This document shows, piece by piece, positions 9,889 to 11,669 of a stretch of DNA of 64,000 nucleotides (position 1 is the stretch's first letter; each line of letters starts with the position of its first letter). The stretch comes from an uncultured Gammaproteobacteria bacterium. GTDB taxonomy: Bacteria; Patescibacteriota; Microgenomatia; Levybacterales; UBA12049. The position numbers and the translations under genes are program-made. The notes below the pieces were generated by a model. The model did no database searches, was not told the origin of the DNA, and was given only the letters and a program-made list of their open reading frames with translations. The stretch spans positions 11,368-75,367 of the forward strand of contig CAZWXQ010000004.1 of assembly GCA_964637955.1 (NCBI GenBank), read 5' to 3'.

Positions 9889-9898
9889 ATTTATCTCC

Positions 9899-10267
9899 TC
9901 ATTCCCCTCTCCTTTCGGGAGAGGGCAGGGTGAGGGCGTTATTAATCATTTCTAAAACAGCTTCTAAATCTTCAATAACTTCATTGTTCCAAAATCTTAA
10001 AATCTTGAAACCTTCTTTTTCCAACCATGCTACTCTTATCGCATCTCTTTTTATCCCAATCTCTGAATTATGCTGCCCTCCATCGAGTTCTATAATTAAT
10101 CTTTTTTCTAAAGAAACAAAATCAACTATATATCTACCAATAGGATGTTGTCTTCTGAATTTTACACCATTTAACCTTCTATTTCTCAATTGCTGCCAAA
10201 ACATATTCTCTACATCCGTTTGATTAATTCTCAAATATCTAGCAGCTAAAATTTTTCGCGCTTTCAT
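9899..10267 (-). CDS. DUF559 endonuclease domain protein (Vsr-like PD-(D/E)xK fold)
   Basis: YIVDFVSLEKRLIIELDGGQH is typical of DUF559. Start placed at MKARK. The N- and C-terminal extensions of the raw ORF are encoded by the flanking inverted repeats. Confidence 0.8.
   Translation of the reverse strand: MKARKILAARYLRINQTDVENMFWQQLRNRRLNGVKFRRQHPIGRYIVDFVSLEKRLIIELDGGQHNSEIGIKRDAIRVAWLEKEGFKILRFWNNEVIEDLEAVLEMINNALTLPSPERRGE
9904..9938. repeat. Left inverted repeat flanking the DUF559 gene. Contains an internal hairpin cctctcc/gggagagg.
   Basis: cccctctcctttcgggagagggcagggtgagggcg. Its reverse complement matches 10271-10300 at about 26 of 32 positions. Confidence 0.6.
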
Positions 10268-10270
10268 ATT

Positions 10271-10300
10271 ACCCTCACCAACCTCTCCCAAGGGAGAGGA
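10271..10300. repeat. Right inverted repeat flanking the DUF559 gene
   Basis: accctcaccaacctctcccaagggagagga. Internal hairpin cctctccc/gggagagg. Also supplies the RBS for the DUF559 gene. Confidence 0.6.
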
Positions 10301-10319
10301 ATAAACGGAAAAAATTATT

Positions 10320-11366
10320 TTATGCCATCACATATTTCGCGCCTTTTGTGCTTCCTGATTTTTTCACTATTCCCTCTTTAATTAGACCCTTTAACTCATT
10401 AAGAATCGTGTCTTCTGAGACCATCGGAAATAATGACGCAAAACTCTTGTTTTGAAGATAACCTATTTTCTGAATATATTCAATTATCTTTATTTGGCGC
10501 TCAGTAAGCATGATGGGTTTGCCTCCAAGTTTTTCTTTCAGATGCGCATCAATCGAAATATTCTCAACTTTTTCTTTTATCTTAGTAAGCTCAATTGAGA
10601 GTCCTTTTGTGAAATATTCCAGCCAAACAGTCTGGTCTCCATTAAATCTTTGGACTGACTTTAAAGCGTCATAATAATCCAGAGAATCACTATCAAAATA
10701 TTCTTCAAGTGAAAAGAATTTGCGGATATCATAACCTTCCAGAAATAAAATCAAAGTAGATAAGGCGCGTGAAACTCTTCCGTTTCCATCAACAAATGGA
10801 TGAATGCGGACCAGTTCATAATGCACAATTCCTGCTTTTAGAACCGGATGAACATCATTATCTTCTAAGTTTACAAACTCCAGAAGTTCTTCAACTTCAA
10901 ATGGCACTGCAATTGATGGCGGAGGCTTAAAGCTTACCTCCCCTGTCAGACTGTTTTTAACTACCACTTGAGTCTCTCGATATTTTCCAATTTTTTCATC
11001 GGGTAATATTTTTTCAACTGTTAAGCTGTGGAGTTTTAAAATTAATTCTTCGTTAATTTCAAGTCCTTCATTTCCTGAAAGCTCTCCAATATAATCCATC
11101 ACTTTTCTATAATTTAATACCTCTTGAATATCTCGATCTCTTGCTAACACTTCATGTCCTTCCAGCACTCTTTCAGCTTGGGAAAAATTTAATTCATTTC
11201 CTTCTATGTGAGTTCCGTAGTGAACTGCTCGAATCAAAGCTTCTTTTCTAAATTCTTTTTCATAATATGGAAGAAGTGGAGCATGATCTATGACTTCACG
11301 AGCAGCTTCAATAATCCCTATACTTTTGAGGATTTTATTAGTGATATGAAAAACTGGACTATACAT
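10320..11366 (-). CDS. fic: Fic family protein (AMPylation/Fido domain)
   Basis: HPFVDGNGRVSRAL is the canonical Fic motif HPFx(D/E)GNGR. Confidence 0.9.
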   Translation of the reverse strand: MYSPVFHITNKILKSIGIIEAAREVIDHAPLLPYYEKEFRKEALIRAVHYGTHIEGNELNFSQAERVLEGHEVLARDRDIQEVLNYRKVMDYIGELSGNEGLEINEELILKLHSLTVEKILPDEKIGKYRETQVVVKNSLTGEVSFKPPPSIAVPFEVEELLEFVNLEDNDVHPVLKAGIVHYELVRIHPFVDGNGRVSRALSTLILFLEGYDIRKFFSLEEYFDSDSLDYYDALKSVQRFNGDQTVWLEYFTKGLSIELTKIKEKVENISIDAHLKEKLGGKPIMLTERQIKIIEYIQKIGYLQNKSFASLFPMVSEDTILNELKGLIKEGIVKKSGSTKGAKYVMA

Positions 11367-11372
11367 GAATAA

Positions 11373-11669
11373 TTATGCTACTTTAATTTTATAAGTATGT
11401 CTCGTTGCGTGAGTTGATCCAAAAGCTTTTTCAATTCTACCATTACCATTGGTCTCCGGCGCACTACCTGCATTTGCAGCTGCATCTGCCTCTAATCTAT
11501 CTCTTATTCTTTCTGTTGCATCTCTTACTACGGGAATACTACCTGCTAATCCTAAACCAAGCTCTTTCTGAGCTCTCAGGATACCGGCAACTTCCCTTCT
11601 TGCAGCTACATCTTCTATCTCTTGCCTTCTTAATATTTCCAATCTTCCAATAGGTCTTTCTTGTTCCAT
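11373..11669 (-). CDS. Small hypothetical protein, immediately upstream of and probably co-transcribed with fic. Possible Fic partner or antitoxin.
   Basis: 98-aa Arg/Ala-rich ORF ending 7 nt before the fic start. AGA-biased codons fit the genome. Confidence 0.4.
   Translation of the reverse strand: MEQERPIGRLEILRRQEIEDVAARREVAGILRAQKELGLGLAGSIPVVRDATERIRDRLEADAAANAGSAPETNGNGRIEKAFGSTHATRHTYKIKVA

Follow-up and report, generated by a model that had tools for sequence, protein, structure and literature searches.

A DUF559 nuclease gene bounded by inverted triplex motifs: a probable inserted cassette between Fic and DNA ligase genes

The stretch of 64,000 nucleotides (nt) analysed here, called the window, comes from contig CAZWXQ010000004.1 and carries on its minus strand, in this order, a Fic gene (10320-11366), an open reading frame (ORF) of 122 amino acids (aa) and a gene for an ATP-dependent DNA ligase (ATG 9888-9886). 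The 122-aa product is a nuclease of the DUF559/YcjD type, and its gene was found to be flanked by two short inverted arms which are both copies of the published BoxC/PIT/"TM" intrastrand triplex motif (hereafter triplex motif, TM) and not new elements. Window 9889-10319 is very probably an inserted, TM-bounded DUF559 cassette of about 430 bp and of a conserved type. Some close relatives have the unit at this one gene junction and others lack it, and the TMs of the unit are integral, selected parts of the DUF559 gene unit across many phyla. The features of the locus are as follows.

10320-10322, minus strand: stop codon of Fic
10300..10319, minus strand: AT-rich leader from the Fic stop codon to the 5′ TM; part of the inserted DNA, missing at the empty junctions of relatives
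10272..10299, minus strand: 5′ TM, sense strand of DUF559 (triplet rule, sub-threshold whalefall-1 match, position shared across loci)
10299-10293, minus strand: right (5′) arm, pyrimidine arm CCTCTCC
10292-10289, minus strand: right (5′) arm, loop
10288-10282, minus strand: right (5′) arm, purine arm GGAGAGG
10281-10280, minus strand: right (5′) arm, linker
10279-10272, minus strand: right (5′) arm, purine tail GGTGAGGG, followed by TAAT and ATG
9899..10267, minus strand: gene for the DUF559/YcjD-type Vsr-like PD-(D/E)XK nuclease, 122 aa (Pfam, NCBIfam, PDB profile and fold matches)
9905..9936, plus strand: 3′ TM, antisense to DUF559 (triplet rule, sub-threshold whalefall-1 match, position and orientation shared across loci)
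9905-9912, plus strand: left (3′) arm, pyrimidine arm CCCTCTCC
9913-9917, plus strand: left (3′) arm, loop (tttcg)
9918-9925, plus strand: left (3′) arm, purine arm GGAGAGGG
9926-9927, plus strand: left (3′) arm, linker (ca)
9928-9936, plus strand: left (3′) arm, purine tail GGGTGAGGG
9889..9898, minus strand: right end of the inserted DNA, GGAG (9898-9895) and spacer; new ribosome-binding site of the ligase

The open frame of DUF559 spans 9899-10291 on the minus strand, with a likely start at ATG 10267 and the stop codon TGA at 9901-9899. The protein matched Pfam PF04480 (DUF559) over profile positions 5-108 of 109 (E=2.3e-40, 137.3 bits versus a threshold of 20.6) and NCBIfam PRK09767 (YcjD) over its full length (E=8e-32); the 109.8 bits of the latter match lie below the equivalog cut-off of 218, which places the protein in the same subfamily but not as an equivalog. 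When a profile built from 30 homologues was compared with the PDB, it matched 3HRL (E=4e-35) and 3R3P, the catalytic domain of the homing endonuclease I-Bth0305I (E=2e-4). The former is N. gonorrhoeae NGO0050, which with YcjD (PRK09767) belongs to the same short DUF559 subfamily as the window protein. An AlphaFold model of the window protein (predicted local distance difference test, pLDDT, 90) had 3HRL, 3R3P and Vsr (1VSR) as its top fold matches, and Foldseek aligned it with 3R3P at probability 1.00 and a template-modelling score of 0.61. Residues D49, E60, D62, H66 and D75 were invariant among 30 family sequences including the window protein. A DUF559 protein of Caulobacter is an active, SOS-inducing nuclease (PMC12907096). 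The model fold also matched RNA-binding RAP-domain proteins of apicomplexan and ciliate mitoribosomes, by which the DUF559 fold may also, going by the model, have an RNA-binding role. PADLOC gave nothing meaningful on membership of a defence system, and no second DUF559 copy was found in the window.

The original prediction had the DUF559 ORF bracketed by imperfect inverted repeats, and the arms indeed lie within 1-2 nt of where it put them. They were identical at 25 of 30 positions, with 3 gaps, in a scored pairwise alignment, which was used instead of a misleading MAFFT alignment. Within the 64-kb window no reverse-strand match to the left arm scored higher than the right arm (37, against 25 for the next unrelated match), GGTGAGGG occurred at two sites only, one per arm, and the hairpin motif, with 0.07 matches expected, was far above chance; a further G/C-rich element of the arm type was not found there. 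The hairpins fold better than shuffled sequence (left arm −27.1 kcal/mol, z = −3.8). It had also been claimed that the right repeat supplies a ribosome-binding site and that the left one encodes the C-terminal residues. Both claims were borne out: the 5′ tail is Shine-Dalgarno-like and ends 4 nt before the DUF559 ATG, and the complement of the 3′ arm encodes the last 11 or so DUF559 codons (LTLPSPERRGE), a stretch predicted to be unstructured, in which pLDDT drops to 70 and then 44. DUF559 has its ribosome-binding site in the 5′ tail, and the 3′ cassette end supplies one for the ligase; as it brings both, the cassette can sit within an operon without polarity. The regulatory roles that had been considered for the arms found no such backing. 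The terminator scan called no intrinsic terminator at either arm and no T-run (U-run in RNA) follows either hairpin, a promoter or terminator role was rejected for want of any signal in the window scan, and nothing supports a regulated operator pair.

Each arm does contain a hairpin, as predicted, but the repeats belong to a motif that had already been published, and their key feature goes beyond a hairpin: it is the mirror-repeat purine tail. In both arms a pyrimidine block is followed by a loop, the complementary purine block, a 2-nt linker and a second purine block. Read against the reversed purine arm, the tail follows the triplets G.GC, A.AT or T.AT at 8/8 positions in the left arm and 7/7 in the right. 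In single-stranded TM DNA, hairpin and mirror tail together have, on the evidence of base order, the geometry of a fold-back purine-motif triplex. The E. coli pattern, TMECO, is CCCTCNCCC N3-6 GGGNGAGGG N3 GGGNGAGGG with 9-nt blocks (Holder et al. 2015, PMC4666352), and in such a class II purine-motif element the third block turns back and lies antiparallel along the purine strand of the hairpin (PMC4666352). The two compare as CCCTCTCCC-tgt-GGGAGAGGG-ccg-GGGTGAGGG in E. coli and CCCTCTCC-tttcg-GGAGAGGG-ca-GGGTGAGGG in the window, with class II purine-motif geometry in both, and inverted doublets also occur in E. coli. The exact TMECO pattern was not matched: against the 9-nt blocks and 3-nt linkers of E. 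coli, the window copies have blocks of 7-8 nt and linkers of 2 nt and represent a shorter variant. They further differ in lying in an AT-rich genome of the candidate phyla radiation (CPR) type, in bracketing a gene and in having no further copies in the window. Literature on the motif also includes Bachellier, and Hoyne and Maher (2000).

Two other described elements resemble the arms. Rfam whalefall-1 (RF01762) scored 19.8 bits on the left arm and 17.7 bits on the right against a gathering score of 37, and gave no match above threshold in 20 further DUF559 loci. The regions concerned are window 9903-9937 and 10271-10302. Its CUCUCC-UUGG-GGAGAG hairpin and AGGGUGAGG tail are shared with the window arms, whereas its 24-nt second hairpin between arm and tail is absent from them. 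TM variants with long linkers, in which a hairpin lies between arm and tail, flank DUF559 in alpha- and gamma-proteobacteria (loci L017, L023, L030, L052 and L068). By this resemblance whalefall-1 may be a long-linker TM variant, that is, a DNA repeat of the triplex-motif family rather than a small RNA. The second element is a G-quadruplex-hairpin-duplex switch of E. coli, in which the same words GGGAGAGGG and GGGTGAGGG occur (Kaplan et al. 2016, PMC5100583). The purine arm and tail of the window arms likewise give four G-runs, but these are only G2-G3 runs, and unequal G-runs in mirrored order are what a triplex, but not a quadruplex, would predict.

The junction was compared with that of 80 metagenome ligase relatives (63-91% identity) without DUF559, 67 of which had both Fic and ligase. 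Empty sites between the two genes, which the original prediction had proposed to look for, were found in 31/67 relatives, where the Fic stop and the ligase ATG are −1 to 113 nt apart, typically about 4 nt (TAAtATG). An example of the empty junction reads ...AAATATATAATGGCATAATATGAAATTTAGTGAA..., and the empty junction is well conserved at the DNA level among relatives. Four other lineages carry the cassette at the Fic|ligase junction: L003 (ligase 95% and DUF559 73% identical), L165 (78% and 79%), L167-170 (82% and 67%) and L166 (51% and 67%). These lineages fall in three places on a neighbour-joining tree of the ligase, with 3 changes by Fitch parsimony. The leader at 10300..10319 is nearly identical in L165 and different in L003, and the purine-rich stretch on the ligase side, from the DUF559 stop to the ligase ATG, is present in every cassette-bearing relative. 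No TM-like motif was detected in 545 kb from the 80 cassette-less relatives, nor at their empty junctions. Evidently, the TMs of this lineage appear and disappear together with the gene.

The association of TM and gene was then sought in 82 loci, comprising the window, L003 and 80 DUF559 loci from named genomes of Proteobacteria, Chloroflexi, Nitrospirota, Planctomycetota, Melainabacteria, Elusimicrobia, CPR and other phyla. With a permissive TM detector, which misses the window's own 3′ TM (over-extended stem) and whose locus counts are therefore lower bounds, a sense-strand TM was found just upstream of DUF559 in 58/82 loci and an antisense TM at the 3′ end in 56/82; both were present in 45 and either in 69. 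A stricter detector gave 45 upstream, 49 at the 3′ end and 34 with both. Elsewhere in the same loci TM density was 0.175 per kb, so that TMs are enriched about 50-fold at DUF559 ends over the background of these loci. Unit length is tight (mostly 393-476 bp), and the distance from tail end to start codon is mostly 0-13 nt. The original prediction had called for a search for further copies of the repeat, and these flank DUF559 genes in many phyla; none turned up elsewhere in the window or in the 545 kb from relatives. The inverted-repeat motif is thus not unique to this locus, and on this point the original prediction stands.

Selection on the motif acts on nucleotides. The C-terminal tails of 120 homologues look like the motif translated in different frames (PSPxRRGE, PHPNPLPKGEG, LTLALSQRERE), and the 3′ TM starts in ORF frames 0, 1 and 2 in 20, 16 and 20 loci, respectively; as all three frames are used, conservation must be at the nucleotide level. 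Stem sequences vary among loci yet remain complementary (covariation). Where arms are asymmetric, the tail fits the reversed (mirror) arm over the direct arm by 70:14, with 49 ties, as in GGGGAAAGG with GGATAGGGG and GGGGGAGG with GGTGGGGG. In 26 cassettes with unlike TMs the tails had 12 mismatches to their own arm and 48 to the partner's arm, in TMs that had been called by requiring fit to the own arm. The two TMs of one cassette resemble each other more than those of different cassettes (edit distance 2.09 vs 4.37), and extra TMs within 3 kb, seen in 24 loci, match the type of their own cassette, sometimes a rare one (2.79 vs 4.69); 0 of 2000 permutations reached the observed value in either case. 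Long-range 5′-3′ pairing of the two tails was rejected as a conserved feature, the tails often differing while each matches its own arm, and a hairpin of pyrimidine arm and tail hiding the Shine-Dalgarno sequence fits symmetric variants only and fails in asymmetric ones. The association is one-sided: TMs are common in IMG/VR contigs, but in 120 of these just 2 of 143 canonical TMs adjoin a DUF559 gene, and TM pairs are found there in all arrangements. The coupling of TM to DUF559 appears to be unreported; a title and abstract screen together with triplex, BoxC and REPIN searches, which was not exhaustive, found no literature linking DUF559 or YcjD to these repeats.

Several variant arrangements were observed in these collections. 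Tail-to-tail TM pairs bracket small non-DUF559 genes of 115-137 aa in two (pro)viral IMG/VR contigs (L266, 11197-11654; L286, 2496-2980), and a TM pair can therefore bracket other cargo. In L009, L074 and L080 the flanking TMs are opposite or direct in orientation relative to the DUF559 gene, and in L009 the DUF559 frame runs on into a long ORF with no stop until 4914. Tandem arrays of 2-3 direct copies of the 3′ hairpin or TM, with periods of about 40-60 nt, follow DUF559 immediately in L006, L024 and L056. Two cassettes lie between two tRNA genes (L013, 2725-3503; L060, 92-1082) and one upstream of a tRNA gene (L010, 3664-3740). Targeting of tRNA genes was rejected as a rule, with just 3/80 cassettes adjoining them.

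In E. coli, ycjD is an accessory gene, found in 3378/5426 complete genomes, and it is mutually exclusive with eefRABCD (2038 genomes) as an allele between fabI and sapF (MG1655, L084; CFT073, L292). TMECO #9 lies between fabI and ycjD (Table S2, PMC4666352). At its 3′ side ycjD has a degenerate pyrimidine/purine hairpin and a partial duplicate of its own 3′ end followed by the TMECO; a perfect 15-bp hairpin overlaps its start and the canonical 5′ TM has been lost (L084, MG1655 1351030-1351850), in which it differs from the window cassette. The hrpB-mrcB TM doublet, TM(+), 16 nt, TM(−), has the architecture of the cassette without an ORF. ycjD is distributed over phylogroups A, B1 and C plus ST69 and ST182 (PMC12817139), and TMECO counts are 18-30 in A/B1 strains, 1-2 in B2, 10-11 in O157/O55 and 6-15 in D/F. 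TM count thus tracks the ycjD phylogroups, which is suggestive but phylogenetically confounded.

The model we favour overall, tentatively and at somewhat less than even chances, is a selfish cassette resembling the repetitive extragenic palindrome (REP) and REP-associated tyrosine transposase (RAYT) system, or a homing gene, whose nuclease would act on its own structured ends. The Vsr-like PD-(D/E)XK enzyme would recognise a fold-back DNA triplex or hairpin end, nicking its TM ends when these are extruded or single-stranded, and such nicking would help the cassette to be copied, recombined or retained. The system would, in other genomes, also be the source of TM singlets and doublets without the gene, the BoxC elements of E. 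coli among them; in this small AT-rich genome there would be the autonomous copy only, and the window would hold its minimal form. A role at the DNA level is favoured by the inverted arrangement, the constraint on the mirror tail, the matching of repeat types and the gene-less doublets. The narrower claim, by which the TMs would be mobilised or maintained through nuclease action on them, is drawn by analogy and is possible, if a little less probable than the model as a whole. The broadest claim, by which YcjD-type DUF559 nucleases would be the cognate enzymes of BoxC/PIT/TM repeats and form a second REP/RAYT-like system of repeat and domesticated nuclease in most bacterial phyla, we regard as rather unlikely.

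The likeness to REP/RAYT (REPIN) systems consists in a single-copy nuclease gene flanked by inverted copies of a short hairpin repeat, which is largely chromosomal and vertically inherited and shows no target-site duplication; in other genomes the repeats far outnumber the gene and their type matches the type that flanks it. As in those systems, the association of repeat and gene is one-sided. Dispersed copies, which are part of those systems, are known from the literature for E. coli and others and were seen locally in the 24 DUF559 loci, whereas the window and the 545 kb from relatives have none. The enzymes differ, an HUH/Y1 tyrosine transposase there and a PD-(D/E)XK Vsr-like fold here, so that the cassette is an analogue and not a member, and a GTAG-type tetranucleotide there contrasts with a mirror purine tail of triplex potential here. 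For the window cassette, action on the repeat is proposed by analogy.

A number of observations weigh against this model. No biochemical link exists between any DUF559 protein and TMs, and TMECO forms a triplex in vitro, but a stable triplex was not detected in vivo in E. coli (PMC4666352). As no dispersed TMs are seen in this genome, the nuclease has nothing to spread here. Few plasmids carry YcjD-like genes (41 of 72,556 records, most of them non-mobilizable), and the E. coli correlation of TM count with ycjD rests on essentially one clade. The remaining 36/67 relatives carry at least 10 unrelated inserts of 136-1539 nt at the Fic|ligase junction (L085-L164), among them a response-regulator-like gene (11 loci), GNAT, a Phd/RelE-like toxin-antitoxin pair, GGDEF, a 23S-rRNA-IVP-like gene and several unknowns. 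The junction (equivalent to window 9889-10319) is a general insertion hot spot, and the cassette may recur there without site-specific homing. Window and L003 diverge uniformly, being 75-88% identical across Fic, cassette and ligase, which indicates vertical inheritance since one acquisition; recent movement was not seen. There was no signal of a target-site duplication (observed 1.98 vs 1.71 in permutations), and the cassette contains no transposase or integrase. An insertion-sequence-type transposon or miniature inverted-repeat transposable element was accordingly rejected despite the inverted repeats, and so was horizontal transfer argued from DUF559/ligase incongruence, a protein-level signal that fades with saturation at the DNA level. 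The small mobile or homing cassette of the original prediction holds as an inserted unit, with Fic and ligase abutting in 31/67 relatives, but its mobility is not supported mechanistically: no target-site duplication was found, and L003 shares the cassette by vertical descent.

The chief competing model is one of expression or insulation alone, in which the TMs would act in cis only and control a potentially toxic nuclease; we consider it unlikely, if still to be reckoned with. The 5′ hairpin and G-rich tail would set the start of translation, the 3′ hairpin would stabilise or insulate the transcript and re-supply a ribosome-binding site, the cassette would move only passively, by transformation and recombination at a permissive junction, and gene-less TMs would be decayed cassettes or have an independent function. 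This agrees with the Shine-Dalgarno-like tail 0-13 nt before the start codon, with the place of the cassette inside a same-strand Fic-ligase operon with GGAG after the DUF559 stop codon, and with the occurrence of TMs only with the gene in this lineage. The lack of target-site duplication, the vertical inheritance in L003 and the generic nature of the hot spot also fit, as does the membership of RNA-binding RAP-domain mitoribosome proteins in the fold family. Left unexplained, however, are the inverted 3′ copy with its purine tail on the antisense strand, and the mirroring of each tail to its own purine arm, a mirror repeat having no Watson-Crick meaning in RNA. According to the published work, RNA does not form triplexes of the purine motif, and PIT elements showed neither promoter nor terminator activity in E. 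coli (PMC4666352). Nor do the arms have a terminator signature; the two tails are often not complementary, which speaks against long-range 5′-3′ pairing in the mRNA, and the model has no account of the TMs of matching type that occur by the hundred, without the gene, in other genomes.

A free-standing homing endonuclease gene would account for the filled and empty junctions in another way: DUF559 would cut the empty Fic-stop/ligase-start site and be copied by double-strand-break repair, with the TMs as passengers. The nuclease domain is homologous to that of I-Bth0305I (EDxHD family, PDB 3R3P; PMC3239194), and the cassette, like free-standing homing endonuclease genes, is a small gene wedged between conserved genes with filled and empty alleles among relatives. 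The same junction is filled at ligase identities of 95%, 82%, 78% and 51% and empty in closer relatives at 91% and 86%, and its empty form is well conserved. Yet the window protein is a 122-aa catalytic domain alone, without the extra DNA-binding region used by I-Bth0305I, and is associated with no intron or intein, while structured repeats conserved at both ends are not a known feature of such genes. The same cassette stands in unrelated contexts in other phyla, so that a Fic|ligase-specific target cannot be general. Flank identity does not drop around the cassette between window and L003, and no co-conversion tract is visible; many unrelated genes also occupy the junction, and the universal conservation of TMs is unaccounted for. 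We judge homing of this kind to be improbable.

Slightly more improbable still is that DUF559 is a host structure-specific repair nuclease which processes triplex or hairpin obstacles (TMs) genome-wide, its gene merely lying among such repeats. Vsr belongs to the repair nucleases, polymerases are blocked by TMs in vitro, TMs have also been linked to genomic instability (PMC4666352), and the TM-rich clades of E. coli carry ycjD. This lineage, however, has only the two flanking TMs, and the gene and both TMs have been kept in five diverged lineages; that TMs are so exactly placed and oriented at the gene ends would be unexpected, and ycjD is dispensable, being absent from 38% of complete E. coli genomes. 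Finally, chance, or a generic intergenic repeat or operator pair without relation to the gene, is effectively refuted: TMs are common between genes in certain genomes, and (pro)phage contigs have them flanking other genes, but they are enriched about 50-fold at DUF559 ends, the only two in 64 kb flank the single DUF559 gene there, and relatives without the gene have none in 545 kb.

Beside the cassette, a 98-aa ORF at window 11373-11669 (minus strand), between Fic and a DUF5654-like gene, had no Pfam hit. Its G + C content is 43-46%, against a background of about 33%, and it is seemingly absent in L003, the closest relative, in which 8 nt separate DUF5654 from Fic. This may be a second insertion specific to the lineage.

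The presence of BoxC/PIT/triplex motifs in E. coli has been on record since the 1990s, and hundreds of genomes contain them. So far no function, mobility factor or gene association has been found for them, and the main survey is explicit in reporting no association with gene classes and no mobility genes (PMC4666352). DUF559/YcjD is, for its part, a very large family of orphan nucleases. The near-obligate, position- and orientation-specific coupling of the two gives both a testable hypothesis, namely that the nuclease acts on the structured repeat, and the orphan nuclease family may be the missing partner of the orphan repeat. If so, this would be a naturally occurring system with selection on a mirror-repeat (triplex-type) DNA structure, and the cassette is a candidate for a compact structure-guided nuclease cassette. 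If the coupling were expression control alone, it would still be a widespread and unusual cis-element architecture, in which a coding sequence overlaps a structured repeat in any frame.

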